The notes: a model not told the origin generated them from the letters alone. A DNA stretch of 64,000 bases from Patescibacteria group bacterium (GCA_029210915.1 JARGGJ010000004.1:15327-79326); one strand, 5' to 3'. Positions 3,943-56,416 are shown, counted from the stretch's first letter. A program made the numbers and translations.

Positions 3943-3976
3943 CGAACTACGAATTTCGAACTACGAACTACGAATT
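3943..3976. repeat. Tandem cgaactacgaa(ttt) units (intergenic copy)
   Basis: cgaactacgaatttcgaactacgaactacgaattt. The same family occurs at 47088-47163 (in leuS) and 51387-51426 (in dinB). Confidence 0.9.
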
Positions 3977-4043
3977 TTTTGATTAGTCATTTTGCATGGG
4001 ACAACCAAACATCGACCCTTTCCATGAATCTTTTATGAGATTT

Positions 4044-4070
4044 ACTAGGACTAGGACTAAGTACTATGAC
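4044..4070. repeat. taggactaagtactatgac-family element
   Basis: The 19-mer taggactaagtactatgac is identical at 4052-4070 and 18331-18349. A reverse-orientation relative cctagtcctagtcctagtcctagtcatagtggtag lies at 43408-43446. Confidence 0.9.
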
Positions 4071-4088
4071 TTTAGTGTAAGTTTTAGG

Positions 4089-4451
4089 TTATTTCTCCCA
4101 CTCTACCTTTACCTGTTTGCCATCTTTGCGGATGGGGATGCGGATTTCCAAGATACCGTTTTTGATTTTGGCTTCGGTGGCATCGGAGGCAACGTGGTAT
4201 GGGAGTACGATAGAACGGCTAAAGGCTCCCCAGTAGCATTCCTCGTAAAACCAGTCTGTGGCTTGCTCTTTTTTTTCATGTTCGCGCTTGCCACGGATTG
4301 TGAGCAAATCGCCATGTACGGAAATGTCGAGATTGTCGGGCTCTACTCCGGCTACAAGTGAGCGAATAACAAGCATATCGCCATCGCGATAAACATCCAC
4401 GGAAAGTTGACCCTCATCACCCGAGGGCATCCAATCTGAAAGTTGGTTCAT
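4089..4451 (-). CDS. Hsp20/alpha-crystallin small heat-shock protein
   Basis: 120 aa with an alpha-crystallin domain pattern: SVDVYRDGDMLVIRSLVAGV...ISVHGDLLTIRGKRE...GAFSRSIVLP...AKIKNGILEIRIP. The overlapping plus-strand ORF 3996-4361 is a shadow. Confidence 0.9.
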   Translation of the reverse strand: MNQLSDWMPSGDEGQLSVDVYRDGDMLVIRSLVAGVEPDNLDISVHGDLLTIRGKREHEKKEQATDWFYEECYWGAFSRSIVLPYHVASDATEAKIKNGILEIRIPIRKDGKQVKVEWEK

Positions 4452-4588
4452 ACAAACTTATTATATCATAATGAAAGAATAACCAATAACCAAACTCCAA
4501 TAACCAATCAATCACCAATAATCAAATTCCAATCACCAATTAATTTCCGATAAACAATTTAAAAAAACTCCAAAAACCACTATTACGA

Positions 4589-4664
4589 CCCCCTTTAGCA
4601 AAGGGGGATAATTACACAAAGTGTAATTTGGGGGATTTCCGAAAGCCCCCTTTATGAAAGGGGG
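4589..4664. repeat. Cluster of GC-rich palindromic elements (intergenic)
   Basis: CCCCCTTTAGCAAAGGGGG, AATTACACaaaGTGTAATT, GGGGGATTTCCGAAAGCCCCC, CCCCCTTTATGAAAGGGGG. Lies between the vanW-like stop and the hsp20 start. Confidence 0.9.
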
Positions 4665-4717
4665 ACGAAATAAAAAAAACACGATTCACCGTGATTTTTT
4701 TTATTTCCGGGGGAATG

Positions 4718-6613: not shown

Positions 6614-6696
6614 ACAACATTAGTTAAAAGTCTATCAAGTTAAAAGTCTATCAAGCTGGCTCTCTGTGATCAATGAGAGATAAAAGTTTATAAAAC

Positions 6697-6909: not shown

Positions 6910-6965
6910 AGATGCATACTACCTACTATTTTTGGTTTAAACAATATCCAATCGCATGACTTATT

Positions 6966-7068
6966 AATAACCAATAATCAATATTCCAATCATCAATAAA
7001 TAACCAATAATCAATAACTTAATAATCAATTGGTGATTCATTGGTTATTGGGACTTGGATATTGGTAT
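6966..7068. repeat. ccaataacc/ggttattgg-family hairpin
   Basis: The left arm is rich in aataaccaataatcaata units and the right arm reads cattggttattgggacttggatattgg. Other loci: 4478-4541, 10400-10558, 16881-16911, 28280-28318. Confidence 0.85.
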
Positions 7069-7090
7069 ATTTCCACAATATGTGGAGGTA

Positions 7091-7227: not shown

Positions 7228-7443
7228 CGCTTCTTGATTGAATGTTCAGTTGATTATGTTTTATATCACGATTTAGTGTTTGTGTCAAGGGTTTGTGCTT
7301 GTATAACGTTGTTTAAAAGCCAACGATGACAAATGACGTCTTGCCGTATGCAAGACGTATTAAGGTACACCAAAAGTATCTCATGCGTTCAGGGGTGCGT
7401 CAAGACTCTAATATTGGCTTATTTTAGCTAAAAAACAAAATGG

Positions 7444-7612
7444 TTTGTAAAGTTAAAAGTTTATAAAGTTTGTAAAGTATAAGTGGACAGAACTTGTAGA
7501 TTTTCAATTATGTCAATCAAGCCAAAAATAACTAATTCTTCAAGAGTGACTTCAAGCCTCTCTTTATGAACTTGTTACTTTATGAACTTTATAAACTTTA
7601 TGAACTTGTTTA
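7444..7612. repeat. ataaagtt/aactttat-family hairpin downstream of smc
   Basis: tttgtaaagttaaaagtttataaagtttgtaaag ... ctttatgaactttataaactttatgaacttgtttac. Siblings at 16705-16813 and 38121-38175. Confidence 0.9.
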
Positions 7613-10394: not shown

Positions 10395-10399
10395 CTCAC

Positions 10400-10558
10400 A
10401 ATTACCAATCACCAACAAAACAATAACCAATTAATAACCAAAATCCAATAACTCAATAACCAATAGTTCGAGGGTTGACTTTTGTTGCATTTGGGTTTAG
10501 TGTTGGTTATTGGTTTATTGGATATTTATTGATGATTGGAACTTGGTTATTGGTTATT
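10400..10558. repeat. ccaataacc/ggttattgg-family hairpin between rbfA and nrnA
   Basis: Arm 10400-10465 (attaccaatcaccaac...aataaccaat) against arm 10501-10558 (tgttggttattggtttattgg...ggttattggttatt). Confidence 0.9.
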
Positions 10559-11530: not shown

Positions 11531-11611
11531 TTAATGCATAATGTATAATGCATGATGCATAATGGATGAAAATATTTTATTATTCATTATGCATTATTAA
11601 TTATGCATTGT
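11531..11611. repeat. gcataatg/cattatgc hairpin between nrnA and clpP
   Basis: ttaatgcataatgtataatgcatgatgcataatgg ... ttcattatgcattattaattatgcattg. Confidence 0.9.
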
Positions 11612-11784
11612 GTTTTAGCACTCTTGGTATTTGACTGCTAAATCATTATCCCTTATACTGGATTTACGTTAAAAGATGAAAGTAACAAGTTCATCAAGAT
11701 AAATGATTAATACAATTAATGAAATATTCGAAGTTCGTCGAGCTGAGCTCGATTCGTCGTTCGAAATTCGATGTTCGAAAGTAT

Positions 11785-12396
11785 ATGAATCCCTATCAAA
11801 TTACATCACAAGCTCCAGCTAGCTATCTGATACCAACTGTTATTGAAAAAACTCATAATGGTGAGCGTGCATACGACATTTACTCGCGTTTGCTTAAAGA
11901 TAGAATCATAATGCTGGGAACAGCCATTAATGATGATATTGCAAACATTGTAATTGCACAGTTATTGTTTTTGGAAAGCCAAGATAAAAGTAAAGATATT
12001 AAGTTATACGTTAACTCACCGGGCGGATCTGTGACTGCGGGGCTCGCGATTTATGACACGATGCAACATATTAGTTGTGACGTTTCAACGATTTGTACCG
12101 GCCTTGCGGCATCGATGGGAGCCGTATTACTTGCCGGCGGAGCTACGGGAAAACGTTTCGCGCTCCCCAACTCCGAGATTATGATTCACCAAGTTTTGGG
12201 TGGATTTGAGGGGCAAGCAACGGATATTAAGATTCACGCAGAAAGAATCTTGAAGACTAAGGAACAACTGAATAAAATTTTATCCAAGCACACCGGTAAA
12301 CCGCTTAAACAATTAGAAAAGGATACGGATCGTGATTATTTTATGGATCCCAAGGAAGCTAAAGCTTATGGGTTGATTGATAAGGTGCTTGAGTAA
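11785..12396 (+). CDS. clpP: ATP-dependent Clp protease proteolytic subunit
   Basis: [28 protein letters not shown], catalytic Ser in [17 protein letters not shown], His in IMIHQ. The track start at 11719 adds 22 repeat-derived residues, so I trimmed to the ATG at 11785. Confidence 0.9.
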
Positions 12397-12519
12397 TTGT
12401 CTGAACCACGATTCGTAGGATTAATGGATTAACGTGATTATTCTTCTTATACTTCCAGAATATAAATGAGAGAATAATCTAGTTAATCCGTTAATCGAGT
12501 AAATCAAGGTTCAAGACAA
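12397..12519. mobile_element. MITE-like hairpin element, copy A (about 120 bp)
   Basis: Terminal inverted repeats TTGTCTGAACC / GGTTCAAGACAA. Internal complementary blocks acgattc, gattaacg/ccgttaatc, gattattct/agaataatc. No ORF. Confidence 0.7.
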
Positions 12520-15136: not shown

Positions 15137-15148
15137 AACTTACTTTCA

Positions 15149-15232
15149 ATAATTAATAATTTTACATTTAATGAATAATAAAGCTTTTCATGATGAATAT
15201 CTTTATTATTTGTTATTTATTATTTGTTAATT
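15149..15232. repeat. aataataaag/ctttattatt-family hairpin upstream of gyrA
   Basis: aataattaataattttacatttaatgaataataaag ... ctttattatttgttatttattatttgtt. Half-sites also at 28205-28230, 35284-35313, 38634-38665 and 40271-40300. Confidence 0.9.
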
Positions 15233-15844
15233 GGCGTTTTGTGCATCGATTGTTACACCCGGTGGAATTTGGAAATCGTTTGATGAAGGAGTTTCGGAGG
15301 ATTCATTTGAGGGTTGAAACAAATCACTGTGACCGGAAGACTCCATTTGTGCCGAAGTTGTTGCATTGTCTGCCGAAGTTGATGCGTTTATTTGATCTAT
15401 TGTTTGCAATATGGCGGCCTGTTCTCTTAAATCCATTAAATGATCTTCTTGCAGTGAATCTATTTCTTCGACCATTACGTTGATGTTATCGTGAATAGTA
15501 CTTTTTAGCTCCCCGTAATTTACCTCGCCCGTAGTACCGGTTTCGTTGGTTCCGATTGCTCCGGCAATGGTTTGGCGCATGGTATAAACCCAGCCAATAG
15601 CAATTGCCAAAACACAAACGATGACTCCGGTCCATAAAGAAAACCGTTGCACTGTGTCTACAGGTTGGCGCATTGCGGCATGAGCCAAAATCAGCTGGCG
15701 CTTTTCTTCGGAAGACATGATGCGCGGGCGCTCGGGAGCCGGAGTGCTTGCAGCTGAAGCAACACGCTTTGATGCGGTTCGGCGGGTACGCTTTGGCGCT
15801 GCGGTTATTACCTCATCTTCATTTGTAGCTTTTTTACGGGGCAT
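15227..15844 (-). CDS. Hypothetical single-pass membrane protein
   Basis: 205 aa with a basic N-terminus, one TM helix (LWTGVIVCVLAIAIGWVY) and a Ser/Thr-rich tail. No family recognised. Confidence 0.55.
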   Translation of the reverse strand: MPRKKATNEDEVITAAPKRTRRTASKRVASAASTPAPERPRIMSSEEKRQLILAHAAMRQPVDTVQRFSLWTGVIVCVLAIAIGWVYTMRQTIAGAIGTNETGTTGEVNYGELKSTIHDNINVMVEEIDSLQEDHLMDLREQAAILQTIDQINASTSADNATTSAQMESSGHSDLFQPSNESSETPSSNDFQIPPGVTIDAQNAN

Positions 15845-15855: not shown

Positions 15856-15937
15856 AAGTAACAAGTATCAAGTAGCAAGTTCATCAAGAGATACCTAAGC
15901 AACTCTTGATGAACTTGTTACTTTTATCTTGATGAAC
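15856..15937. repeat. catcaagag/ctcttgatg-family hairpin
   Basis: aagtaacaagtatcaagtagcaagttcatcaagag ... ctcttgatgaacttgttacttttatcttgatgaac. Sibling at 40316-40393. Confidence 0.9.
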
Positions 15938-16586: not shown

Positions 16587-16704
16587 AGTTTTTACCTGTT
16601 TTAACCCAGAAATTTTAACACAGCAGACCCAATTCGGCAAGGGTATTTTGAACCAGGATTGTCGATAAAATATGACCAAAAAATTAACAAATATTTACCA
16701 AAAA

Positions 16705-16813
16705 TCAGTTCATAAAGTTTGTAAAGTTCATAAAGTTCATAAAGTTTGTAAAGTGGTTATGATGGGTTGATTGGCTTTATGAACTTTATGAACTTTTAAC
16801 TTTACAAACTGAT
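16705..16813. repeat. ataaagtt-family hairpin between ruvC and the MBL-fold gene
   Basis: atcagttcataaagtttgtaaagttcataaagttcataaag ... ctttatgaactttatgaacttttaactttacaaactgat. Confidence 0.9.
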
Positions 16814-28190: not shown

Positions 28191-28327
28191 TGATACCTAA
28201 ATTACAAATAATAAATAATAAATAATAAAGATTGTGTCACTTTGTGAATTTAATTATACTATCTATGTAATGTGATACTAATTGGTTATTGTTAATTGAT
28301 TATTGATTATTGATTATTTCAAGTTTT

Positions 28328-35087: not shown

Positions 35088-35100
35088 AAAAACTTTTTAT

Positions 35101-35182
35101 AATTAATAAATAACAAATAATAAATAATAAAGCGAGCGGAGGTGATTAATCTTTATTATTTGTTATTTATTATTTGTTATTT
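35101..35182. repeat. aataataaag-family near-perfect 32-bp-arm hairpin in the recA 5-prime region
   Basis: aattaataaataacaaataataaataataaag-cgagcggaggtgattaat-ctttattatttgttatttattatttgttattt. Lies between the SOS box and the recA ATG. Confidence 0.95.
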
Positions 35183-35192
35183 ACGGTACGTT

Positions 35193-35207
35193 GTTCTGTT
35201 TTTGTTC
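35193..35207. promoter_or_regulatory. Candidate LexA operator (SOS box) upstream of recA: GTTC-N7-GTTC on the plus strand
   Basis: gttGTTCtgtttttGTTCtataac. Its reverse complement ttataGAACaaaaacaGAACaac matches the lexA-upstream site at all but one position from TTATAGAAC through the second GAAC. Confidence 0.6.
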
Positions 35208-35374
35208 TATAACTGCAAGCTTAGCAAATTGGCGGGGAGTAGTCATTGGGGATAACTCTGTGCTGCGCTGGCGCTTCGCAAAATTACAAATAATAAATTA
35301 ATAAATAATAAAGAAATCTGAAAGAGTAATCCTTGTTAATTAACATGAAGTACTGGTCAAACCCGGTTCGAGTT

Positions 35375-38069: not shown

Positions 38070-38122
38070 CGTTTATAACCCCATTATTCAACGGGGCAGG
38101 CCGTTTGTAACGTTTATAACGA
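38070..38122. repeat. Conserved 45-50-nt motif upstream of the M23 gene (partner upstream of leuS)
   Basis: cgtttataaCCCCattattcaaCGGGGcaggccgtttgtaacgtttataacgag versus 49358-49402 acgtttataaCCCCGTTatgcAACGGGGcaggctgtttataacgag. Both lie about 65-115 nt 5-prime of a minus-strand ATG. Confidence 0.85.
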
Positions 38123-38186
38123 GTTTATAAAGTTTGTAAAGTTGAAAGTTTGTAAGGTTGAAAGTTTGTAAGGTTATTAAAGAGTG

Positions 38187-40201: not shown

Positions 40202-40315
40202 GACTATTGTGACACGGAAATTGACAAGTTTGTCAAGGGGAAAACTTTACTAAATGACAAATTTTAAATATTAAATAACAAATAATAAAGAATAAAGAAC
40301 TAAACTGATTAAAGA

Positions 40316-40393
40316 AAAAGTTCATCAAGATAAAGTTTATCAAGAGTAGATAATGTTTCTCTTGATGAACTTGCTACTTTAAGCTTGATGAAC
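40316..40393. repeat. catcaagag-family hairpin upstream of comEC
   Basis: aaaaagttcatcaagataaagtttatcaagag ... ctcttgatgaacttgctactttaagcttgatgaac. Confidence 0.9.
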
Positions 40394-41825: not shown

Positions 41826-42290
41826 ATGAAGACAAAAAAAGTTATCCCGAAAAAGTTAATAAAAAAGCAAAAAACAATAAAGCTCACTAAAAATGATAAT
41901 ATCAAGTGTTTTCCATCCGATTGGTTCGATAAGATGCCGGCACCAATTTTTATTTTGGATGAGAGCGGACAAATACTTTACGCGAATGATGCGTTTTGTG
42001 ATTTAATAAATAAAAAGAAAAAAGCTTGCTTGGCCGTAAAGCCAATGGACATGATGATAGATCAGGCTGAAAATCGAAAATTTTTAAAGGATCTGTTGCA
42101 AGTTTACAGAGGCGTGGCAATTAAAAGGGGTATTTATACATTAAATATTTCGGGCAAAAGCTTTAAAACCCTTTTAGATATAGCGCCGGTTTATGATAAC
42201 AAGAAAAAAATGGTGCAGTATGCAGTAGGCTTGATTTTGGATCACGACTCTAAAAAGGGGCTAAGGAGATTGAGGGATTTGTTTAAATAA
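41826..42290 (+). CDS. Small PAS-domain protein
   Basis: 154 aa. MPAPIFILDESGQILYANDAFCDLINKKK... is a PAS N-cap/beta pattern. Divergent from the C92 pair. Confidence 0.55.
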   Translation: MKTKKVIPKKLIKKQKTIKLTKNDNIKCFPSDWFDKMPAPIFILDESGQILYANDAFCDLINKKKKACLAVKPMDMMIDQAENRKFLKDLLQVYRGVAIKRGIYTLNISGKSFKTLLDIAPVYDNKKKMVQYAVGLILDHDSKKGLRRLRDLFK

Positions 42291-42324
42291 CAAATGGCAA
42301 ATATCAAATAGCAAGAGTAAATTA

Positions 42325-42357
42325 AAAAATCAGAGCTTGAATTGCTCTGATTTTTTT
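42325..42357. terminator. Bidirectional terminator between the PAS gene and trxB, nested in the loop of a repeat hairpin
   Basis: aaaaaa-TCAGAGC-ttgaatt-GCTCTGA-ttttttt. Flanked by the complementary arms aaataacaaatggcaaatatcaaatagcaagag (42285-42317) and ctcttgctatttgccatttgttattt (42372-42397). Confidence 0.85.
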
Positions 42358-42400
42358 CTAACTGTCGCTTCTCTTGCTATTTGCCATTTGTTATTTACTA

Positions 42401-43324
42401 TTATTCTTGTTCCTCCAAAAATTTCTTTGCCTCCAGCGCGGCCATACAGCCGGTGCCTGCAGAGGTGATGGCTTGGCGGTAGACACGGTCCATTACGTCG
42501 CCTGCCGCATAGATGCCACCAACATTTGTTTTAACACCGTCGGTGACGATATAACCTTCGGTATCGCAGGTGATAAGATCTTTGCAGAAATCCGTGTTGG
42601 GGCGGTGGCCGATAGCAATAAAAACTCCGTCGATTGGCATTTCCGATGTTTCATTGGTTAGATTATTTTTAATGCGGATTTTTTCCAGTTTCATATCTCC
42701 CATAAATTCATCTATCTCCGTATTGAACACGAACTTGATTTTGGGATTGGCCTTGGCGCGCTCGAACATAATTTTGCTGGCACGGACAGCGTTTTCGCCT
42801 TTGCGAACGAGGACAGTTACAGATGCGGCGACCTTGGCCAGAGTTTGCGCGTCTTCCATGGCAACATCCCCGGCGCCTACTACAGCAACATTTTTATCGC
42901 GGAAGAAGAAGCCATCGCAAGTTGCGCAACCCGAGACTCCGCGGCCTTTAAACTTTTCCTCGGACTCCGTGCCAAGCCATTTAGCCACGGCTCCCGTGGC
43001 AATGATGACGGTTTTGACTTTTCCGGATGTTTTTTCGCCATGTAAAATAAAACCATCTTCAACTTTTTCGATTTTGGTAACTTTTCCATCCAAAAGATTC
43101 GTGCCGAAACGAGCAGCTTGTTGTTTGGAGCGTTCCATAAACTCAGGCCCCATAATGCCCTCGGGAAAGCCGATGAAGTTTTCGACTTCGTTGGTTGTTG
43201 TGAGCTGACCGCCCGGTTCGGGACCAAGCCAGAGCGCAACGGTAAAACCAGCACGAGCAGCGTAAACCGCGGCCGAGTATCCGGCAGGGCCGGCACCGAT
43301 TATACCTATATCGTAGTTATTCAT
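42401..43324 (-). CDS. trxB: Thioredoxin-disulfide reductase
   Basis: IIGAGPAGYSAAVYAARAG, redox-active CATCDG, VVGAGDVAMEDA. The track GTG start at 43354 was trimmed to the ATG at 43324 (MNNYDIGIIGAG). Confidence 0.93.
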   Translation of the reverse strand: MNNYDIGIIGAGPAGYSAAVYAARAGFTVALWLGPEPGGQLTTTNEVENFIGFPEGIMGPEFMERSKQQAARFGTNLLDGKVTKIEKVEDGFILHGEKTSGKVKTVIIATGAVAKWLGTESEEKFKGRGVSGCATCDGFFFRDKNVAVVGAGDVAMEDAQTLAKVAASVTVLVRKGENAVRASKIMFERAKANPKIKFVFNTEIDEFMGDMKLEKIRIKNNLTNETSEMPIDGVFIAIGHRPNTDFCKDLITCDTEGYIVTDGVKTNVGGIYAAGDVMDRVYRQAITSAGTGCMAALEAKKFLEEQE

Positions 43325-43553
43325 AATATATTTAGTAATTAATATACTTAGCACTCAAACTCGTACTTAGTCGTAATACTTCCTCTTAGCTATACGGGAT
43401 AAATAGCCCTAGTCCTAGTCCTAGTCCTAGTCATAGTGGTAGTAGCTAATGAATTTGTAAGTCGAGTGGTATGTACTTTATTACTTGTACGATTATTTGG
43501 CAACACTCTGATGCTGGTCATAATTACAATGTTGGTTTAGTATAAATATAAAT

Positions 43554-46562: not shown

Positions 46563-46636
46563 ATCTATATTAAATCATTTTAAATTCAAATAGCCCAGAT
46601 AATGTCAACCATAAAACCGCCCTAAGGCGGTTTTTG

Positions 46637-49294
46637 TTAAATTACAATGTTTAGAATTCTGCCGGGAACATAGATAACTTTTTTCGGCTCAGTACCATCT
46701 AAATACTTTTTCACATTCTCATCTTGCATAGCTGCTTCCATAGCCTCGGACTCTTTAGCATCGGGCGCGATTGTGATTTCACCGCGGACTTTGCCGTTAA
46801 TTTGGACGCCGAGGGTAATTGTATCTTCGATGAGCAAATCCGGATTGTAAGTTGGCCAAGCTTCCAAGTGGATTGATGATTCGTTGCCAAAATTGTGCCA
46901 GATTTGTTCGGCGATATGTGGAGCGAAAGGCGCTATCAATTTAAGATACGTTTTATAATCATCATCCGTGACTGATTCGGATTCGAGGAGAGTGTTAGTT
47001 AAGATCATGAGTTGCGAAATAGCTGTGTTGAAGCGCATCGCATCGATATCGTCGCCGACTTTTTTGATGGACTTGTGTAAGATTGATTCGTATTTCGTAT
47101 TTCGTATTTCGAATTTCGCGTCCGAAGGATTCGTTGTTCGTAATTCGTCGTTCGTAGTTCGAGTTTGATGGAGTGACCAGATTTTATCCAGGAAGCGTTT
47201 GATGCCTTGGATGCCGTGGGTATCCCAAGGAGCGTCCGTATCAAATGGACCCATAAACATTTCGTAGCAACGAAAAACATCGGATCCGTATTCGGAGATG
47301 ACATCATCCGGATTAACAACGTTACCTTTGGACTTAGACATCTTTATTCCACCCTCACCCAAGATCATGCCGTGAGCTGTGCGCTTGGCATAAGGCTCGA
47401 CTCCGCAAGACTCGGGGATGTGGCCCAAATCGTGTAAAACTTTGTACCAAAAGCGAGAGTATAGAAGGTGAAGAGTGGTGTGTTCCATGCCACCGTCGTA
47501 AAGATCAACGGGCATCCAATACTTGAGAGCTTCGGGTGACGCGAAGACTTGATCGTTTTCCGCATCACAATAGCGCAAGAAATACCAAGATGAGCCCGCC
47601 CAGTTGGGCATGGTATCGGTTTCGCGCTTGGCATTGCCTCCGCAAGCCGGGCAAGTAGTGTTTACCCAATCAATGATGACTGAAAGTGGTGATTCGCCGC
47701 TGTCGGTTGGTTCGTAGTTTTCGACATCCGGAAGAAGAATCGGAAGTTCCGACTCTGCGACAGGTTGCCAACCGCATTTTTCACAATGAATCATCGGAAT
47801 CGGCTCGCCCCAATAACGCTGGCGAGAAAAAACCCAATCACGTTGTTTGTAATTTGTGCAACCATGGCCGGCGCCATGCTCTTCGAGCCAAGCAACTATT
47901 TTTTCTTGAGATTTATCAGTTGTGAGATCGTTTAAAAATTCGGAGTTAATGGAAATGCCCTCACCTATCCAGCATTCTGATTCGACTCTAACATCTTCTT
48001 GAGAGACCGGCGTAATATTGGCCGGAGGATGAGAAAGTTCAGCTAGAGCCGGAGGCACTACCACCTTAATAATGGGTAACTCGAATTTTTTGGCGAATTC
48101 ATAATCCCGTTCATCGTGAGCGGGAACGGCCATGATGGCACCCGTGCCGTAGCCCGCCAAGACATAGTCGGCGATCCATACGGGCACTTCTTTGCCGGTT
48201 GCTGGGTTCACGGCTTTTAGACCATGGATCTCTACTCCGGTTTTTTCTTTATTTTCCTGGCGTTCACGATCTGATTTTTTGCGAGTTGTTTCTTGATAAT
48301 CTTTTACTTCTTTTATATTTTCTATTGCATCATGATCGATCCACGAGGTTAAAAGTGGATGCTCGGGTGAGAGAACCAAGTATGTTGCACCAAAAAGGGT
48401 ATCGGGGCGGGTTGTAAAAACTTCTATCTCGTCTATGGTCCTATGTACATGGTCCTGGCTTTGGTTTTGAGTAATTGCAAATTTTATGAGAGCTCCTTCG
48501 GAGCGGCCGATCCAGTTGATTTGCTGGGTTTTTATCTTATCGAGATAATTAACATCTGAGAGTTCATCGATAAGGCGGTTGGCGTATTTGGTTATACGCA
48601 TCATCCATTGTTCTTTTTCGCGCTTTTCAACCTCACCTCCACAACGCTCGCAAACTCCGCCTTGCGCTTCTTCGTTTGATAAACCGATTTTGCAGGCCGG
48701 GCACCAGTTGATTGTTGTGGTGGTTTTATATACGATGCGTTTTGAATCTCTATAATTGCGAATTGCCAAGTCACCATCTTTTTGAATTTCGGCGGGGATC
48801 TCGAGTTCGGTTATAGGACGAGCCTTCTGCAATGATTCATCAAAATAGGCATTGTAGAATTGAATGAACATCCATTGAGTCCATTTGTAATATTTGGGAT
48901 CTGTTGTGTTGATTTCGCGCGACCAATCAAAACCGGTTCCGAGCGATTGGGTTTGACGTTTAAAAGTTGCGACGTTCTTCTCGGTGATTATGGCCGGTTG
49001 CATCTTTTTCTTGATAGCAGCGTTTTCCGTTGGTAAACCAAAAGCATCCCAACCGATGGGGTACATTACATTTAAACCCTCCATGCGTTTTTTACGGGAG
49101 ACTATATCCAGAGCCGTGTAAGATCGCGGATGGCCAACATGCAGGCCATCGCCCGATGGATATGGGAACTCGACCAGAGTGTAAAACTTTTTATCTTTGG
49201 TATCTGATGGTTGTTTTGCGTGATAAATTCCATTATCTTCCCACCATTTTTGCCATTTTTGTTCGATATCTTGAAAAGGGTATTTGTTTGCCAT
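46637..49294 (-). CDS. leuS: Leucine--tRNA ligase, with two repeat-derived in-frame insertions
   Basis: 885 aa. HIGH motif (GLHVGHPRSY), KMSKSKGN, CP1 editing domain (TTRPDTLFGATY). The segments TRTTNDELRTTNPSDAKFEIRNTKYES and QNQSQDHVHRT are encoded by repeat families also found intergenically. Confidence 0.97.
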   Translation of the reverse strand: MANKYPFQDIEQKWQKWWEDNGIYHAKQPSDTKDKKFYTLVEFPYPSGDGLHVGHPRSYTALDIVSRKKRMEGLNVMYPIGWDAFGLPTENAAIKKKMQPAIITEKNVATFKRQTQSLGTGFDWSREINTTDPKYYKWTQWMFIQFYNAYFDESLQKARPITELEIPAEIQKDGDLAIRNYRDSKRIVYKTTTTINWCPACKIGLSNEEAQGGVCERCGGEVEKREKEQWMMRITKYANRLIDELSDVNYLDKIKTQQINWIGRSEGALIKFAITQNQSQDHVHRTIDEIEVFTTRPDTLFGATYLVLSPEHPLLTSWIDHDAIENIKEVKDYQETTRKKSDRERQENKEKTGVEIHGLKAVNPATGKEVPVWIADYVLAGYGTGAIMAVPAHDERDYEFAKKFELPIIKVVVPPALAELSHPPANITPVSQEDVRVESECWIGEGISINSEFLNDLTTDKSQEKIVAWLEEHGAGHGCTNYKQRDWVFSRQRYWGEPIPMIHCEKCGWQPVAESELPILLPDVENYEPTDSGESPLSVIIDWVNTTCPACGGNAKRETDTMPNWAGSSWYFLRYCDAENDQVFASPEALKYWMPVDLYDGGMEHTTLHLLYSRFWYKVLHDLGHIPESCGVEPYAKRTAHGMILGEGGIKMSKSKGNVVNPDDVISEYGSDVFRCYEMFMGPFDTDAPWDTHGIQGIKRFLDKIWSLHQTRTTNDELRTTNPSDAKFEIRNTKYESILHKSIKKVGDDIDAMRFNTAISQLMILTNTLLESESVTDDDYKTYLKLIAPFAPHIAEQIWHNFGNESSIHLEAWPTYNPDLLIEDTITLGVQINGKVRGEITIAPDAKESEAMEAAMQDENVKKYLDGTEPKKVIYVPGRILNIVI
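47088..47163. repeat. ttcgta/ttcgtagttcg tandem units inside leuS
   Basis: ttcgtatttcgtatttcgtatttcgaatttcgcgtccgaaggattcgttgttcgtaattcgtcgttcgtagttcgag, in frame. Confidence 0.9.
48437..48471. repeat. gtacatggtcctgg-family element inside leuS
   Basis: ggtcctatgtacatggtcctggctttggttttgag. About 25 nt are near-identical to 53486-53516. Confidence 0.9.
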
Positions 49295-50683: not shown

Positions 50684-50788
50684 TCAAAGCCGATATCGCC
50701 AAAGGCCGATTAAGAGCTGATGGCGGATTAGATCCTGTGGACTGGATCCTGAAATGAATTCCGGATGGTTGCAAACAAAATGCATAGA

Positions 50789-52252
50789 TCAGTTGCCGGA
50801 GACTTGGACATCGACACCTTCGGTTTTGCGGAAGCCGATGCGGTCGGGGGCGTAATCGGAGCTTAAGCCCATCATGGAGGCAAAGATGATGGATTCCTCG
50901 CCGTGGCGGTCGCGGATGGCGTCGATACAATCCCCCAATTCGAGACCATGTCTCGAATATCCCCCTTTGACAAGGGGGCTTTTAAGAGAATATTTGAGTT
51001 GGAGTTGATGATTGGGTGGGACCAAGTCGGACAGAGTTATGGCGAGGAAGGTTACTTGTTCGCCCTGCCAGATTTGTTCCAGCACTTGCGTAGCCGCATG
51101 AACCAAACTGAAAGGATCGTTGGCAGGGTCGACAAACTTAACCGTTTGGCTCAAACCCACCCCAAACCCCTCCCTTGTCAAGGAGGGACTTGTTTCACTG
51201 CTTCCCCCTGACAAGGGGGAGTGAGGGGGTTTGAACGAAGCTTGGATGGTCATGGTGCGGGCGTAATGACCGAAGCTTCTAAGGCGGCGGCCGGCGCGTT
51301 CGGTGAGGCGGATTAGGATTGGCAGAATCAGGTTTTGTTCATTAGCGCGTTTGGGGACGCAGAAGGAGTGACCGACGGACTTAGGGATCGAACTACGAAC
51401 CTCGAACGACGAACTACGATTTTCGGAGTCGAAGTTCTGAGTGTCGTCGCTCGTCGCTCGTCCCACGTCGCTCGCCAGAGGAGATTGTTCGAAGCGGTCG
51501 ATTTCTTGGCCGCTTAGGCGCTCGTGCCAGTAGTAGCCGGCAACTCCCAAGGCGCGGATTAGGTTGCCTACTGGATAGTTTTTTAAGTCGAGGAGATTAT
51601 AGATGCCAAGAAGGTTTAAGCGGCGGCGGATGCGTTTGCCGATTCCGCAGGCGTCCTCGAGGTCGCGGGTGGCGAGTGTAGCATCTAAATTTTCGCGGTT
51701 GATGATTGTAAGGCCGTTGGGTTTTTTTATTTCTGAAGCGAGTTTTGCGAGGAACTTGCTGGGCGCGATACCAACAGAGCATGTGAGCCACTCGCCCACT
51801 TCGGATTGAATGCGCATGCGCGCACGGCAAAGTGCCCAAGAAGCCTCGGCTTCGTCGCGGTACCAGCCGGTTAGATCTAAAAAGACTTCGTCTATAGAGT
51901 AGTGCTCCACCTTGTCTGTAAGTTCGTGGAAAAGGGAAAAGACACGCGAGCTGACGGCGCGATATTTAGCCGGATCGTTTTGGATAAATTTCATTTGCGG
52001 GCAAACTTTTTTTGCGATTTCCATACTCATACCAACTTTGACTCCGCACTTTTTAGCTTCGACAGAGGCGGCAATGACACAGCCGGCTTTGTGCAGATAA
52101 GCGCAGACACCCAAAGGACGCCCGCGAAGCTGGGGGTTTGCCTGCTGTTCAACGCTGGCGAAGTAGGAGTTCATGTCGATGTGACTGTATAACTTTCGTC
52201 GCACGTCACTCGTCCTACGTCCCACGTTGGGTGATTTGAGTGTTATCGGCAT
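50789..52252 (-). CDS. dinB: Y-family DNA polymerase IV, expanded by several in-frame repeat insertions
   Basis: HIDMNSYFASVEQ, SIDEVFLDL, IAPSKFLAKLASEIKKPNG, HhH GIGKRIRRRLN. 487 aa versus about 350-400 typical. The extra segments coincide exactly with repeat elements. Confidence 0.88.
   Translation of the reverse strand: MPITLKSPNVGRRTSDVRRKLYSHIDMNSYFASVEQQANPQLRGRPLGVCAYLHKAGCVIAASVEAKKCGVKVGMSMEIAKKVCPQMKFIQNDPAKYRAVSSRVFSLFHELTDKVEHYSIDEVFLDLTGWYRDEAEASWALCRARMRIQSEVGEWLTCSVGIAPSKFLAKLASEIKKPNGLTIINRENLDATLATRDLEDACGIGKRIRRRLNLLGIYNLLDLKNYPVGNLIRALGVAGYYWHERLSGQEIDRFEQSPLASDVGRATSDDTQNFDSENRSSSFEVRSSIPKSVGHSFCVPKRANEQNLILPILIRLTERAGRRLRSFGHYARTMTIQASFKPPHSPLSGGSSETSPSLTREGFGVGLSQTVKFVDPANDPFSLVHAATQVLEQIWQGEQVTFLAITLSDLVPPNHQLQLKYSLKSPLVKGGYSRHGLELGDCIDAIRDRHGEESIIFASMMGLSSDYAPDRIGFRKTEGVDVQVSGN
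50961..50978. repeat. GC-rich palindrome inside dinB (encodes SPLVKGG)
   Basis: CCCCCTTTGACAAGGGGG. Confidence 0.9.
51164..51233. repeat. Compound GC-rich palindromic element inside dinB
   Basis: CAAACCCCTC-CCTTGTCAAGGAGGG-...-CCCCCTGACAAGGGGG-AGTGAGGGGGTTTG. It encodes KPPHSPLSGGSSETSPSLTREGFGVG in frame. Confidence 0.9.
51387..51476. repeat. Two adjacent low-complexity tandem elements inside dinB
   Basis: atcgaactacgaacctcgaacgacgaactacgattttcgg, then gtcgtcgctcgtcgctcgtcccacgtcgctcgcc. A relative of the second (tcgtcgcacgtcactcgtcctacgtcccacg) sits at 52197-52231 in the dinB 5-prime end. Confidence 0.9.
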
Positions 52253-52318
52253 AGATTTGGAGAGCTTTAAAATGTGGCATTTAAAAATGTTGATTACGCT
52301 TTTTTAATTCACTATTTG

Positions 52319-53191: not shown

Positions 53192-53226
53192 ATTTTGTTA
53201 CATGCTACAAGTTACATGCTACATGA

Positions 53227-53472
53227 TTACAGTATCGCCATTTCTTCCAACTCCCACTTTAGTGTTTCGGTATAAAAACGCAGACGAAAAGCATTTGCCT
53301 TATCGGTGACGGAATAGATGTACATTTTGTTGCGGCCTTGGCGCTCGGTGTGGACGAGGTTGACCGAGGTGATGCGGTAGTAGCGATTGTTCCACTTAAA
53401 AATCACAGGCTCTGCTCGATCCTGCCTAAACGTAGCTATAACGTCTACGGGTTCTCCAATGTGGCTATACAT
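53227..53472 (-). CDS. Small hypothetical protein (81 aa) in the lexA-dinB operon
   Basis: MYSHIGEPVDVIATFRQDRAEPVIFKWNNRYYRITSVNLVHTERQG... The track start at 53496 lies in a repeat and was trimmed. No family recognised. Confidence 0.5.
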   Translation of the reverse strand: MYSHIGEPVDVIATFRQDRAEPVIFKWNNRYYRITSVNLVHTERQGRNKMYIYSVTDKANAFRLRFYTETLKWELEEMAIL

Positions 53473-53882
53473 ATTGGTACATGGTCCTGGGTACATGGTC
53501 CTGGCTTTGGCTTGAGTTGCCCTAGTTGTTCTCTTGTTCTTAGGGAGGTGATGAATCCTGCTAGAACTTTATTTATTCTTAATGATAAATTGCGCAATTC
53601 CTCAGCCAGCTCTTTGCTAATGTATTCGCGATCTTCCCCAAGATAAAGCAACGATCTAACTTCTGCACATGAACCTTTTGAAATTATTAAAAATCTTGCA
53701 AATTCCTTATCCCCCTTACGATCAAATCCTTCTGCAATATTGTTCATTATAGACATGCACGCTCTTTCTATCTGGTCTTTGTATGACCAATCCCGGCAAT
53801 TTTTAATCTCGCTATGTATGCGATTTGATAATTCACGTGCTAGTTGCCAGGCGATGATATCTTCGAATTTTTCTATGCTCAT
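53445..53882 (-). CDS. Four-helix-bundle protein (23S rRNA intervening-sequence protein family)
   Basis: FEDIIAWQLARELSNRI...MSIMNNIAEGFDRKGDKEFARFLIISKGSCAEVRSLL is the family signature. The last 30 or so residues are read from the gtacatggtcctgg repeat, so the true C-terminus is uncertain. Confidence 0.8.
   Translation of the reverse strand: MSIEKFEDIIAWQLARELSNRIHSEIKNCRDWSYKDQIERACMSIMNNIAEGFDRKGDKEFARFLIISKGSCAEVRSLLYLGEDREYISKELAEELRNLSLRINKVLAGFITSLRTREQLGQLKPKPGPCTQDHVPICIATLENP
53476..53516. repeat. gtacatggtcctgg-family element (overlaps the 4HB gene end and the orf81 start)
   Basis: ggtacatggtcctgggtacatggtcctggctttggcttgag. Confidence 0.9.
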
Positions 53883-53891
53883 ATACTTAAA

Positions 53892-53960
53892 GTCCTGGGT
53901 ACATGGTCCTGAGTCCTGGCTCCGATCGAAGCCAGGACCATGTACCCAGGACCATGTACG
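53892..53960. repeat. gtacatggtcctgg-family hairpin between lexA and the 4HB gene
   Basis: gtcctgggtacatggtcctgagtcctggct-ccgatcga-agccaggaccatgtacccaggaccatgtac. The arms are complementary. Confidence 0.9.
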
Positions 53961-53967
53961 ATTAAGT

Positions 53968-54576
53968 CTATCCGAATTTACGTATGACAGCCTTAACAGT
54001 CCCTTGAATCACCGGGTCGTAACAGTAAATTGGTTTCATGGTGGAGTTTGCCGGTTGGAGGCGGATGCGGTCGCGCTCGCGGTAGAAGCGTTTTAGGGTG
54101 GCGTAGGCGTTATCGAGAAGCGCGACGACCACATCGCCGTTTTTGGGTGATGGATTGCGCTCGACTACGACGTAATCGCCGTCGAAGATGCCATCTTCGA
54201 TCATGGATTGGCCTTTGACGCGGAGTACGTAGGAGTTGGCGGAGTTGGGCGCGAGATCTACGGGGATGGCGATTGTTTCGTGCTCCTCGACAGCCTCGAT
54301 TGGTACGCCGGCAGTGATTAAGCCGGCTAAAGGGAGCATAATGCTTTTACCCCAGCGCACCGCTTTATCGGTAGGCTCGAGCTCGCGCGCGGCACCGCCG
54401 GCTTTTAAGAAGCCGCGCGAACGCAAAGCTTGAATGTGCACGTGCACAGTTGAGGGAGAAGCGAGGTTTAGGCCATCTGCGATTTCGCGAAATGATGGAG
54501 CGTATCCGCGATCGTTAATGAAGTCGATGATGAAATCGAGGACTTCTTTTTGCTTGGGAGTTAATGGCTGCAACAT
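53968..54576 (-). CDS. lexA: SOS repressor LexA
   Basis: wHTH N-terminus (LTPKQKEVLDFIIDFINDRGYAPSFREIA), Ala-Gly cleavage region (LAGLITAGVP), Ser in VKGQSM, Lys in ATLKRF. The track TTG start at 54606 overlaps the operator and was trimmed to the ATG at 54576. Confidence 0.93.
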   Translation of the reverse strand: MLQPLTPKQKEVLDFIIDFINDRGYAPSFREIADGLNLASPSTVHVHIQALRSRGFLKAGGAARELEPTDKAVRWGKSIMLPLAGLITAGVPIEAVEEHETIAIPVDLAPNSANSYVLRVKGQSMIEDGIFDGDYVVVERNPSPKNGDVVVALLDNAYATLKRFYRERDRIRLQPANSTMKPIYCYDPVIQGTVKAVIRKFG

Positions 54577-54600
54577 ATAAATATTTGTGAGAGGGTTATA

Positions 54601-54615
54601 GAACAAAAATAGAAC
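54601..54615. promoter_or_regulatory. Candidate LexA operator (SOS box) upstream of lexA: GAAC-N7-GAAC
   Basis: ttataGAACaaaaataGAACgaa, 25 nt upstream of the lexA ATG. It overlaps the -10 and spacer of the TTGACC-17-TATTTT promoter candidate read on the minus strand. Confidence 0.6.
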
Positions 54616-54634
54616 GAATGCAGCCTTGGGTCAA
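54606..54634 (-). promoter_or_regulatory. Candidate promoter of the lexA-4HB-orf81-dinD-like-dinB operon
   Basis: Minus-strand TTGACC (plus 54629-54634), 17-nt spacer, TATTTT (plus 54606-54611). Confidence 0.5.
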
Positions 54635-54696
54635 GGGATGAGGGTTGAGCCAAAAATTAGACATTTCCACATAGGTTGTTCCATAGTTGTTCGAAT

Positions 54697-54872
54697 ATTG
54701 TCTGAACCTTGATTCACTTATTGTCTGAACCACGATTCACTCGATTAACGGATTAGCTTGATTATTAATTTATACGGACATCCGAAATATGATGAATAAT
54801 CGAGTTAATCGAAATAATCCTGTAAATCCCACTTCGCCAAGGCTGCGAGGGACACGGTCAAGGTTCAGACAG
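54697..54872. mobile_element. MITE-like hairpin element, copy B (about 175 bp, left terminus duplicated)
   Basis: TGTCTGAACC at 54699 and 54722, with its perfect complement GGTTCAGACA at 54861. It shares the acgattc, gattaacgg and aataatcgagttaatcg blocks with copy A. Lies between the lexA and malic-enzyme promoters. Confidence 0.7.
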
Positions 54873-54929
54873 TCATCTTGCCACACCTCTGACCTGGGCT
54901 TATGATTAAAACTTAATCACTAGGACCGA

Positions 54930-54992
54930 GTCTTAACGTCATAAAGTCATAACGGAGCTCCGTTAAGACGTTATGACGTTATGACGTTTAAC
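54930..54992. repeat. gtcataacg/cgttatgac-family hairpin upstream of the malic enzyme gene
   Basis: gtcttaacgtcataaagtcataacggag-ctccgttaagacgttatgacgttatgacg. Confidence 0.9.
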
Positions 54993-55003
54993 TTTTAAAC
55001 AAT

Positions 55004-56332
55004 ATGAAAGAAGACGCATTAAATTATCATGAGTTTAAAAAACCCGGAAAGATTGGGTTGGCAATTACAAAGCCTTGCGCGACTGCCGCGGAGTTATCAC
55101 TCGCCTATTCGCCGGGTGTGGCTTATCCGTGTTTAGAAATTAAAGATAATCCCGAGGATGCATATCGCTATACATCAAAAGGGAATTTGGTTGGTGTTGT
55201 TAGCAATGGTACGGCGGTTTTGGGTTTGGGGAATATTGGTGCGCTGGCCGGGAAGCCCGTGATGGAAGGTAAGGGAGTTTTGTTTAAAAGATTTGCAGGT
55301 GTTGATGTGTTTGATATCGAAGTTGATGAGCAGGATCCGCAAAAGTTTATTGAGACGGTTGCAAGGCTCGAGCCAACTTTTGGCGGGATTAATTTAGAAG
55401 ATATAAAAGCGCCCGAGTGTTTTGTTATAGAGAAAGCCTTGAAGGAGAAGATGAATATACCGGTTTTTCATGATGATCAGCATGGGACGGCGATCATTGT
55501 TGCGGCAGGTTTAAAAAATGCTTTGCAGATAGTTGAGAAAAAAATTGATCAAGTTAAAATCGTGGTGAATGGTGCGGGTGCGGCGGCGATTGCCATCTCT
55601 CATCTTTTGATTGATGTGGGAGTGAAAAAAGAAAATATCTTTATGCTGGATAGCAAGGGATTAATCTCGCAAAATAGAGAAGATTTGAATGAGTACAAAT
55701 TGTTTTTTGCGCAGAAAAACCCCTCCCCATCCCTCCCCTTGTCAGGGGAAGGCGACGGCGATAAGAGTCATTTTAGCTTAGCTGATGTGATGGTGGGTGC
55801 GGATGTGTTTGTTGGGGTTTCGACAGGGAATATTTTAACCGCCGAGATGGTAAAGACTATGAACGAAAAGCCAATTATTTTTGCGCTGGCTAACCCAACT
55901 CCGGAGATAGATCCAAAACTTGCCCGCGAGGCTTCCCCGGGCGCAATCATCGCCACGGGCAGGAGCGATAATGCCAACCAAGTAAATAATGTTTTGGGAT
56001 TCCCTTACATATTTCGTGCGGCGCTGGATGTGCGGGCAAAAGAAATCAATAAAGAAATGAAGTTGGCTGCGGTAGATGCCATTGCGAGTTTGGCGCAAAA
56101 GCCGGTTCCGCAAAGTGTGGTTGATGCCTACGGGCAAGAGTTTACTTTTGGCCCGGATTACATCATCCCCAAACCGTTTGACCCAAGATTGCTCGTGGAG
56201 ATCCCACCGGTTATTGCGCAAGCGGCAATGGATACGGGAGTTGCGACTAAACCAATAGATGACATGGATGCGTATAAAGCTCGGCTTACGGAAATTTCCG
56301 AGGCCTTGGGGCGTGGGGAGTTTTCGTTGTAA
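55004..56332 (+). CDS. NAD(P)-dependent malic enzyme (short form, no PTA domain) with a palindrome-derived insertion
   Basis: 442 aa. LAYSPGVA, HDDQHGTA, Rossmann VVNGAGAAAIA, ALANPTPEI. The extra KNPSPSLPLSGEGDGDK segment is encoded by a CCCTCCCC-TTGTCA-GGGGAAGG palindrome. Confidence 0.93.
   Translation: MKEDALNYHEFKKPGKIGLAITKPCATAAELSLAYSPGVAYPCLEIKDNPEDAYRYTSKGNLVGVVSNGTAVLGLGNIGALAGKPVMEGKGVLFKRFAGVDVFDIEVDEQDPQKFIETVARLEPTFGGINLEDIKAPECFVIEKALKEKMNIPVFHDDQHGTAIIVAAGLKNALQIVEKKIDQVKIVVNGAGAAAIAISHLLIDVGVKKENIFMLDSKGLISQNREDLNEYKLFFAQKNPSPSLPLSGEGDGDKSHFSLADVMVGADVFVGVSTGNILTAEMVKTMNEKPIIFALANPTPEIDPKLAREASPGAIIATGRSDNANQVNNVLGFPYIFRAALDVRAKEINKEMKLAAVDAIASLAQKPVPQSVVDAYGQEFTFGPDYIIPKPFDPRLLVEIPPVIAQAAMDTGVATKPIDDMDAYKARLTEISEALGRGEFSL
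55731..55752. repeat. GC-rich palindrome inside the malic enzyme gene
   Basis: CCCTCCCCTTGTCAGGGGAAGG. Confidence 0.9.
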
Positions 56333-56416
56333 ATGTACAGTGAGAGAAAAAATTAAGAATTAAGAATTAAGAATTTTGGAGGCCTGCGGCATTAATATTA
56401 AACTTAGTTTAAGAAA

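Follow-up and report, generated by a model that had tools for sequence, protein, structure and literature searches.

Intergenic word-armed hairpins in a Patescibacteria genome as probable gene-less copies of a palindromic cassette carrying a four-helix-bundle gene

The window analysed here is a 64,000-nucleotide (nt) stretch of DNA from a Patescibacteria group bacterium (C44:15327-79326 of its assembly, referred to as G000), in which many spacers between genes contain long hairpins with arms built from short tandem words. These hairpins are probably copies of a single class of palindromic insertion element that resembles the intervening sequences of ribosomal RNA (rRNA) and is represented mostly by gene-less derivatives; the spacer hairpins appear to be, for the most part, gene-less copies of a fast-moving selfish cassette. 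The full form of the element would consist of inverted word arrays, mostly of 7 nt, around a loop with one small gene, usually encoding a four-helix-bundle (4HB) protein. In the TGTCTGAACCTTGATT family a GxxExxY PD-(D/E)XK nuclease would occupy the loop in place of 4HB, and most copies, including nearly all those in the window, would be reduced to the arms and a short loop with no gene.

The G000 assembly has 1.455 Mb in 49 contigs, with approximately 43% G+C and 98% completeness, and was compared with 18 congeneric species and 12 other families of the class. The closest relative, G007, has a RecA 96% identical to that of G000, shares the gene order and has a nucleotide identity of 76-86%. The best named relatives by RecA are metagenome-assembled genomes of Candidatus Uhrbacteria, Parcubacteria and Patescibacteria, with at most 78% identity.

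Using a strict detector (ungapped arms of at least 18 nt, at least 80% complementary, with a span of up to 260 nt), we identified 271 hairpin loci in the 1.46-Mb genome, 252 of which are intergenic. Three dinucleotide-preserving shuffles, used as a control for chance, gave 13-16 loci, with 1-7 intergenic. The hairpins proposed by an initial annotation of the window are therefore real and not confined to it, and its five named examples (35101-35182, 16705-16813, 10400-10558, 53892-53960 and 42285-42397) were all recovered, at 35100-35183, 16704-16813, 10405-10558, 53892-53952 and 42284-42397, respectively. The density in G000 is 1.86 per 10 kb, against 0.63 per 10 kb in control loci from outside the Candidate Phyla Radiation (CPR), where only two of 26 hairpins are periodic. 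An assembly artefact was ruled out, as the same architecture is present in 30 relatives, including single-contig and 3-contig assemblies. The idea of a hairpin in nearly every spacer proved too strong: among the 31 spacers of at least 50 nt in the range 3943-56380, a long hairpin is present in 15, a word array in 16 and at least one of the two in 22, and genome-wide about 22% of the spacers have a strict hairpin.

Tandem Repeats Finder, used to call word arrays, identified around 1,000 intergenic arrays, of which 469 have period 7, 197 period 9 and 119 period 8. More than 135 distinct heptamer units are present genome-wide, in agreement with the many word families proposed earlier, and the 8-mer families AACGTCAT and AACGTCTT account for 33 and 36 arrays. 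The unit length of 8-11 nt does not hold, since the main period is 7, followed by 9 and 8; because period 7 dominates the arrays, the earlier 9-11-mers are mostly mis-phased heptamers. The description of arms as tandem units applies clearly to only 151 of the 271 best arms, and two of the listed families, TAGTCC (43404-43437) and AATTAAG (56351-56375), are present in the window only as unpaired direct arrays. The two arms of a hairpin are true mirror copies: where words within an arm differ, 74% of positions pair in register, compared with 31-33% after a shift of one word, a contrast that includes some ascertainment bias. An A-rich 5' arm followed by a T-rich 3' arm is only moderately favored (157 versus 93).

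G000 has 15 4HB genes (PF05635/TIGR02436, S23p/Avd-like), with PF05635 E values from 1e-15 to 4e-37 for 14 loci, and 14 of the 15 are enclosed by inverted arms of 16-38 nt. On one side the arms lie directly against the start codon and on the other they extend up to or into the stop codon, and the word family differs from cassette to cassette. Such arms surround only 31 of 414 control open reading frames (ORFs) of 90-200 amino acids (Fisher p=2e-12, with the 4HB genes conservatively counted as 13 of 15). The window contains one complete example:

53477-53959, minus strand: full 4HB cassette with perfect 31-nt inverted arms made of GTACATGGTCCTGG x2 (53477-53507 and 53929-53959; match 31/31)

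The gene of this cassette is the ORF at 53445-53882, with a PF05635 match at 53559-53864 and a TIGR02436 match with E=4e-28. Its product matches PDB 2GSC, an S23p-type protein of Xanthomonas (E=6e-7), and its C-terminal residues derive from the repeat, as previously suggested, with the 3' arm encoding the tail of the ORF. The hairpin at 53892-53952, with perfect arms of 20 nt, is an extra inner copy of the words, pairing with the right arm of the cassette.

A Pfam search of six long-armed exceptions among the control ORFs gave matches for four of them: two GxxExxY/PDDEXK_3 proteins, one GIY-YIG nuclease and one PemK/MazF protein. All three GxxExxY/PDDEXK_3 nuclease genes of G000 carry TGAACCTTGATT-type arms, inside the TGTCTGAACCTTGATT foldback family, and on this basis are the gene-bearing form of the foldbacks at 12397-12519 and 54697-54872 in the window. 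Neither the 4HB nor the GxxExxY proteins have a PADLOC match to anti-phage defence systems.

The association extends beyond G000. In more than 20 genomes of relatives, 65 of 80 4HB genes are likewise flanked, mostly with period 7, and the pattern holds in a second phylum, where two Bacteroidia genomes have arms around every one of their 14 PF05635 genes, of at least 16 nt in 13 cases and again mostly with period 7. Genes and arms diverge together, the Jaccard index of arm 6-mers falling from 0.78 at protein identities of at least 90% to around 0.22 at 70-80%, 0.06 at 60-70% and 0.007 below 50%. Cassettes also change place: the same one (76% nucleotide and 84% amino acid identity) has unrelated flanks in G000 (C2:45867-46285) and G007 (57113-57539), and the site adjacent to lexA in G000 holds a different cassette (54% amino acid identity) from the one in G007. 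The 4HB ORFs have dN/dS ratios of 0.02-0.10, indicating purifying selection. No conserved arm-ORF junction, which would suggest a gene hopping into pre-existing loops, was found in the cassettes; the arms abut the ORF directly.

Two further observations concern the 4HB genes. In G007, the ATAATGACGTGGGACGAT words of the lexA-adjacent cassette also enclose a second, neighboring segment of some 300 nt (57540-57850), a pattern suggestive of cassettes in tandem or nested, with a further small ORF. Many genomes also have a divergent 4HB subfamily of 139-199 amino acids (for example, G000 C8:20245-20776) with non-periodic arms ending in ...GAGCGCGCAA/TTGCGCGCTC, and consequently the word-built arm is not universal for these genes.

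The words of the cassettes recur in hairpins without genes. Among the hairpins located away from 4HB genes, 112 of 263 share at least five 7-mers with G000 cassette arms, compared with two for shuffled arms, and the innermost 16 nt of a cassette arm is present in 57 solo hairpins. The families in common are AAATAAC...AAAGCGAG, AAATAGC...CAAGAGT, AATAACC, AAGTTCATCAAGAGT, CGTTTATAA, TAGTCC, TTCGTAT, AGATAC, ACGTCCC and GTACATGGTCCTGG. The following features of the window belong to families with a gene-bearing form:

35099-35183: gene-less hairpin of the AAATAAC/AAATAAT family with loop ...CCTCCGCTCGC and 33-nt arms, 88% complementary; it lies in the recA 5' leader, with the conserved promoter and LexA-like box on one side and the ATG on the other
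10398-10558: hairpin of AATAACC-type words in the rbfA-nrnA spacer, with a unique loop
42284-42402: heptamer arms AAATAAC, AAATGGC, AAATATC, AAATAGC, then AAGAG; arms of 24 nt, 96% complementary
15856-15923: gene-less copy of the AAGTTCATCAAGAG family, spanning the spacer from stop codon to ribosome-binding site
12397-12519: gene-less foldback of the TGTCTGAACCTTGATT family
54697-54872: second foldback copy, TGTCTGAACC family, with the left end duplicated (23-nt unit x2, 54696-54741)
43404-43437: direct array of TAGTCC x5.7, with no mirror arm
47087-47165, minus strand: TTCGTAT/TTCGTAG arrays, in frame in leuS (residues 710-736)

The words of the recA hairpin, together with the arm end AAAGCGAG, also flank the 4HB gene at C8:8219, and those of the rbfA-nrnA hairpin flank the ones at C6:2283 and C9:27771. 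Likewise, the words of 42284-42402, with the arm end CAAGAGT, flank the 4HB gene at C11:72418, and the leuS words flank that at C22:76208. The gene-bearing copy of the AAGTTCATCAAGAG family is located at C8:22868-23244, and TAGTCC words are the arms of the cassette at C45:37714-38154.

Several sequence motifs are dispersed over the genome. The loop motif of the recA hairpin (CCTCCGCTCGC; ...CCTCCGCTCGCTTT) has 25-32 genome copies against 1.5 by chance, GTACATGGTCCTGG has 46 matches against none and the TGTCTGAACCTTGATT terminal motif 73 against two. Other recurring pieces are the 9-mer-family loop GTGGTTATTGGGTTGG and the CATCAAGAG family. The word AAGTTCATCAAGAG has 74 matches in G000, 378 in G001, 45-88 in two other genomes and 0-3 in 14 of 20 congeners, and a cognate 4HB gene (at least 75% identity) was found in three of the six genomes with the word and in none of the 14 without it (p=0.018). 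Non-autonomous elements, one of the origins first suggested for the hairpins, are well supported by the tens of dispersed copies, the patchy copy number and the gene-bearing versions within the same arms.

An alternative is that the hairpins are a local by-product of replication, in which heptamer microsatellites, comparable to the cyanobacterial repeats discussed below, slip in AT-rich spacers and are palindromised by template switching at stalled forks. They would then have neither mobility nor a dedicated function, and the 4HB genes would merely lie in array-prone spacers. The diversity of more than 135 heptamer units fits this explanation, as do the many arrays that are single-locus or have no mirror arm, the exact 7-nt indels that separate arms of different species, the nested local duplications in the recA leader of G001, the lack of any transposase among the genes found and the roughly half of the hairpins with no words in common with any cassette. 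We nevertheless consider it rather improbable as a general account, because loops and arm ends of non-repetitive sequence are common to dispersed copies (CCTCCGCTCGC 25 times, TACATGGTCCTGGCTT, and CATCAAGAGT 27 times), a whole cassette, arms and gene, is present at unrelated loci in two species, the arms accompany 14 of 15 4HB genes but 7.5% of control ORFs, and one word has expanded in lineage-specific bursts, from 0 to 378 matches.

The comparison with sister genomes revealed expanding repeats rather than conserved unique sequences, with hairpins gained, lost and replaced between species. Three further hairpins of the window are relevant here:

7443-7607: hairpin of 9-mer words AAAGTTTAT, with a loop of 96 nt
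11532-11617: hairpin of TAATGCA words directly 3' of nrnA, upstream of the conserved clpP promoter
16704-16813: hairpin without a gene, built from the 9-mers AAAGTTCAT/AAAGTTTGT around the family loop GTGGTTAT..GGGTTG, with perfect 22-nt arms

The hairpin at 16704-16813 is absent from G007, and the orthologous spacer has 255 nt in G000 versus 41 nt in G007. At 7443-7607, G007 has kept the arms, and the loop has diverged and holds a nested CATCAAGAG-type hairpin. Two sites have exchanged one word family for another with flanks conserved to the base: at 11532-11617 G007 has unrelated TAGTCC/TAGTACT words beside a promoter that is 98% conserved, and at 15856-15923 it has a hairpin of another family (GTCATAAC/CGTTAAGAC words). 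At 42284-42402 G007 has retained the enclosed terminator, and its arms are distinguished from those of G000 by exact indels of 7-nt words. The rbfA-nrnA hairpin is approximately 94% identical between G000 and G007, loop included, and its flanking genes are less conserved. Spacers that are orthologous in the two genomes have concordant folding z-scores. Slippage, which had been proposed as a generating mechanism, is supported by arms that differ between species by whole 7-nt words and by the nested expansions in the recA leader of G001.

The recA leader, compared in nine congeners, has the AAATAAC hairpin in G000, the same hairpin expanded with nested duplications in G001 and a TAGTATC hairpin in G007. 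In G013 and G004 a 4HB gene with AATTCAA/TTGAATT arrays is found at this site, and in the remaining congeners other word arrays or nothing. In G030, which belongs to another family of the class, a TTTTAAC/GTTAAAA hairpin is located just upstream of recA. The recA promoter region (35192-35257, minus strand; AGTTATCCCCAATGAC...TTGCTAAG...) and a LexA-like box, TAGAACAAAAACAGAACA (GAAC-N7-GAAC), are conserved in nine species of the genus; in these species the leader between the box and the ATG is hypervariable throughout. The G000 hairpin is placed in the 5' leader because it lies downstream of this promoter and box.

A second alternative is that the host selects the hairpins as RNA punctuation. 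A lineage without Rho and with few Shine-Dalgarno sequences would use the stems as terminators, attenuators, RNase III sites or protectors of 3' ends, keeping a hairpin while its sequence drifts or is replaced. Rho was not found in any of 21 genomes of the class (G000 and 20 relatives), in which there are only weak matches taken as ATP synthase subunits, and G000 has an RNase III gene (223.6 bits). The hairpins begin at a median of 19 nt past the stop codon and almost fill the spacer. Selection by the host would also account for two sites (15856-15923 and the recA leader) at which both species keep a hairpin although the families are unrelated, for the agreement of the folding z-scores, for the conservation of the rbfA-nrnA hairpin and for the real bidirectional terminator (~42325-42360) that the heptamer arms of 42284-42402 extend and enclose between convergent genes. 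On the other hand, a T-rich 10-mer directly follows the 3' arm in 15% of the hairpins against a background of 11%, and divergent spacers, which have no 3' ends, are as populated (19%) as co-directional (22%) and convergent (20%) ones. Asymmetric loops have no orientation bias relative to transcription (the D-family loop is found six times sense and 11 times antisense), many hairpins have no counterpart in the sister species' orthologous spacer or are lacking in several congeners, word arrays occur inside coding sequences too, and the enclosed 4HB and nuclease genes are left unexplained. For these reasons we regard host-selected punctuation as unlikely to be the general explanation.

Canonical intrinsic terminators were rejected as an identity for the hairpins, given that T-runs are not enriched and that hairpins are just as frequent in divergent spacers. 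With the position of the recA hairpin in a 5' leader, the same results sustain the earlier statements that most hairpins lack a T-run, that they occur both between co-directional genes and in 5' regions and that they are not simply terminators. Canonical terminators exist apart from the hairpins, at ~42325-42360 and 46563-46636. At the latter, a bidirectional terminator (AAAACCGCCC..GGCGGTTTTT), G007 has a non-homologous canonical terminator at the same site; plain terminators, too, are quick to turn over in the genus.

The initial annotation had compared the hairpins with repetitive extragenic palindromes (REP) and bacterial interspersed mosaic elements (BIME), which, with the hairpin-forming REP doublets (REPIN), are associated with transposases called RAYT, for REP-associated tyrosine transposase (PMC3116915). 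The comparison is apt for behavior: both are short intergenic palindromes with many dispersed copies, also between co-directional genes, non-autonomous copies outnumber the gene-bearing unit, and REP/BIME have proposed roles in mRNA stability. It fails for membership, as no Y1/RAYT transposase (PF01797) was found in G000. Moreover, the arms are made of AT-rich tandem words, not of a 20-40-nt GC-rich palindrome with a conserved tetranucleotide, and dozens of unrelated families coexist in one genome. RAYT/Y1 was accordingly rejected as the mobilising enzyme.

It is in fact very improbable that the hairpins are REP/BIME-type or IS200/IS605-derived palindromes moved by a Y1 (RAYT/TnpA) transposase acting on single-stranded DNA hairpins. 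They are intergenic, dispersed palindromes of multiple families, and a Y1 transposase gene is present 13 times in G007. Repeats often lie at the contig ends of G000 (six of 32 loop motifs are at contig edges), so that insertion-sequence copies may be missing from its assembly. However, there is no PF01797 match in G000 despite its 98% completeness, only four of 13 congeners have one although all carry hairpins, the G007 copies are identical multi-copy insertion-sequence genes rather than a single REP-flanked RAYT, and the proteins encoded by the gene-bearing hairpins are of the 4HB or GxxExxY type rather than transposases. The G007 gene, of the IS200/IS605 type and 148 amino acids long (for example, C3 816742-817104), is present in an assembly of three contigs; G000 has none, possibly through loss from its short-read assembly.

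Returning to a palindromic insertion element with mostly gene-less copies, we infer the following course of events. The elements would spread at the DNA level into the gaps between genes and occasionally, in frame, into tolerant protein loops, and the gene-less hairpins would derive from the cassettes rather than the reverse. Replication slippage would continually remodel the arms, and their mirror relation may be kept by copying of each hairpin as a unit or by selection for pairing. In transcripts, the stems of 20-40 base pairs (bp) could be cut by RNase III, by analogy with rRNA intervening sequences, and in a lineage without Rho such cutting would separate cistrons or trim 3' ends. The 4HB protein may be hypothesized to act as a word-recognising factor.

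Several points weigh against this interpretation. The cassettes do not encode a recombinase, transposase or reverse transcriptase, nor was one found in G000, and therefore the argument for mobility rests on distribution rather than on mechanism. Filled and empty sites were compared across species at 76-86% identity, a distance at which insertion boundaries, and with them any target-site duplications, are blurred. The words of approximately half of the hairpins do not occur in any sampled cassette, and because many arrays are locus-specific or unpaired, some hairpins may arise locally by slippage. The co-divergence of protein and arms would also be expected from plain vertical co-inheritance, and the filter for a different locus was crude. 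The solo hairpins could be the primary elements, with the genes as later captures. G007 and G017 keep gene-less AAGTTCATCAAGAG copies without a cognate 4HB gene. In addition, the rbfA-nrnA hairpin is more conserved than its flanking genes, a pattern more readily reconciled with a function for the host than with a selfish element. The models of local slippage and host function each cover part of the data and, not being mutually exclusive with the insertion element, are compatible with it.

The closest known parallel is provided by the 23S rRNA intervening sequences with an S23p ORF. That of Coxiella burnetii has 428 nt, with an S23p (PF05635) ORF and a 28-bp terminal inverted-repeat stem; it is excised by RNase III, and the number of its tandem heptamers varies between strains (PMC4990558). 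As in such sequences (Coxiella burnetii, Leptospira and the Xanthomonas-type protein), the cassettes have a long inverted-repeat stem and a single PF05635 ORF that fills the loop, with no transposase; tandem heptamers of variable number are also shared, and intervening sequences are regarded as selfish. The stem has 31/31-nt arms in the window cassette and 16-38 nt in 14 of the 15 genome copies, and the PF05635 ORF is found in the cassette at 53477-53959 and not in the gene-less hairpins.

The differences are also clear. Intervening sequences occupy helix 25 or 45 of 23S rRNA, whereas the elements described here lie between, and sometimes within, protein-coding genes. All 15 4HB genes are off the rRNA contig, C30, where the only 23S match (C30:5751-7264) is cut by the contig end, so that an rRNA copy is possible. 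Unlike the rRNA intervening sequences, the elements have 15 gene-bearing and hundreds of gene-less copies per 1.46 Mb, and their arms are whole word arrays of a family that differs per cassette. Their ORFs are under purifying selection, whereas that of Coxiella is decaying. PF05635 is also the Avd-like fold of diversity-generating retroelements (DGRs; PMC10053308), whose accessory protein Avd is homologous to the 4HB protein. A DGR context for the Avd-like genes was rejected, as neither G000 nor G007 has a PF00078 reverse transcriptase match and the cassettes hold a single ORF.

Another parallel is found in the short tandemly repeated repetitive (STRR) heptanucleotide sequences, which reportedly characterize heterocystous cyanobacteria and are said to build, from heptamers, the P6b stem in the tRNA-Leu intron of Nostoc. 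STRR consist of tandem 7-nt units of many families, mainly intergenic, in which arrays and their complements form hairpins and size varies by whole units; CCCCAGT, TTGGTCA and CAACAGT are canonical units. We know of no described link of STRR to enclosed 4HB genes. The hairpins of G000 share the tandem heptamers, mostly intergenic and of several families (469 arrays, more than 135 units), but the canonical STRR units are absent from its 40 commonest heptamers, and host phylum and unit sequences differ. Pairing into hairpins, to our knowledge the exception in STRR, is the rule here.

The Rickettsia palindromic elements, reportedly of 100-150 bp and few families, are said to insert in frame into protein-coding genes, and we know of no gene-bearing form. 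They are similarly palindromic repeats found also in frame in genes of a small genome, but they are not built from tandem words. The TGTCTGAACCTTGATT family has the inverted termini of a MITE, a miniature transposable element bounded by inverted repeats; its gene-bearing copies, however, encode a GxxExxY PD-(D/E)XK protein and not a transposase, which sets it outside that class. Intergenic direct repeats of the heptamer TAACTGA are known from Beggiatoaceae, cyanobacteria and Bacteroidetes, with one inverted set reported among 170 in a Beggiatoaceae genome (PMC4679880), and GGGAATC repeats from Xanthomonas and Nostoc (PMC4692102). The 7-nt period, the intergenic location and the patchy spread across phyla without a known transfer mechanism are common to these repeats and ours. 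They differ in being mainly direct arrays of a single word, positioned upstream of start codons, whereas here there are many words and typically mirror arms.

A bolder proposal, which we advance tentatively and hold to be less probable than not, is that inverted arrays of 7-nt words around an S23p/Avd-like gene constitute a class of transposase-free mobile cassettes across phyla. A pentameric 4HB protein would recognise its own periodic array, which would account for the words being specific to each 4HB lineage; copies without a gene would be non-autonomous derivatives, and rRNA intervening sequences, cyanobacterial STRR hairpins and the Patescibacteria spacer hairpins would be three faces of the same class. 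Heptamer repeats (STRR and similar) and S23p-bearing rRNA intervening sequences have been unexplained for about 30 years and treated as unrelated. The finding that an S23p-type gene is almost always within a word-armed hairpin in two phyla, with a gene-less form in spacers, links both puzzles and results in one testable hypothesis that joins them. Among the papers searched, none was found to deal with hairpins of Patescibacteria, or with word-armed hairpins that enclose 4HB genes elsewhere than in rRNA. The elements also have practical consequences: they inflate ORF calls via false N- and C-terminal extensions, break short-read assemblies, enter coding loops and, in this lineage without Rho, probably fragment polycistronic transcripts.

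The recognisable genes in the window include rpoB, rpoC, recA, lexA, clpP, rbfA and nrnA. No tRNA or tmRNA genes are present in the window, and an Rfam scan of it gave no family above threshold. Its remaining hairpins and arrays are the following:

4478-4544: direct array of AATAACC-type words, with a separate hairpin at 4581-4672
6966-7049: AATAACC/AATAATC array and a short opposing ATTGGTGATTC array
15140-15233: AATAAT/TTTGTTA arrays, with a short hairpin at 15174-15210
28198-28319: weak hairpin formed by a TAAATAA array with an ATTGATT array
38102-38175: direct arrays of CGTTTATAA and AAAGTTTGTAAGGTTG
40251-40372: AAATAAC-type array, then a second gene-less AAGTTCATCAAGA hairpin (40318-40372)
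51388-51474, minus strand: CGAACTA and TCGTCGC arrays, in frame in a dinB-like gene, as an insertion of 18 residues compared with G007
54929-54988: 8-mers GTCATAAC/GTCTTAAC in a near-perfect palindrome, upstream of lexA
56351-56375: AATTAAG direct array, with no mirror arm

In the leuS array region G007 is six residues shorter and diverged, and the in-frame arrays in leuS and the dinB-like gene recall the Rickettsia palindromic elements. Spurious N-terminal ORF extensions, suspected at 10475, 11719 and 16679, are backed by alignment with orthologs, and lexA is a similar case. The alignments begin 16, 13 and 10 residues inside the longest-ORF starts of nrnA (10475), a metal-dependent hydrolase-like gene (16679; NCBIfam PRK00685) and lexA (54606), respectively. 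The clpP promoter (TTGACT-17-TATACT, 11631-11659) and leader are 98% identical in G007, adjoining a fully replaced spacer segment, and the real start of clpP is near 11785, not 11719.

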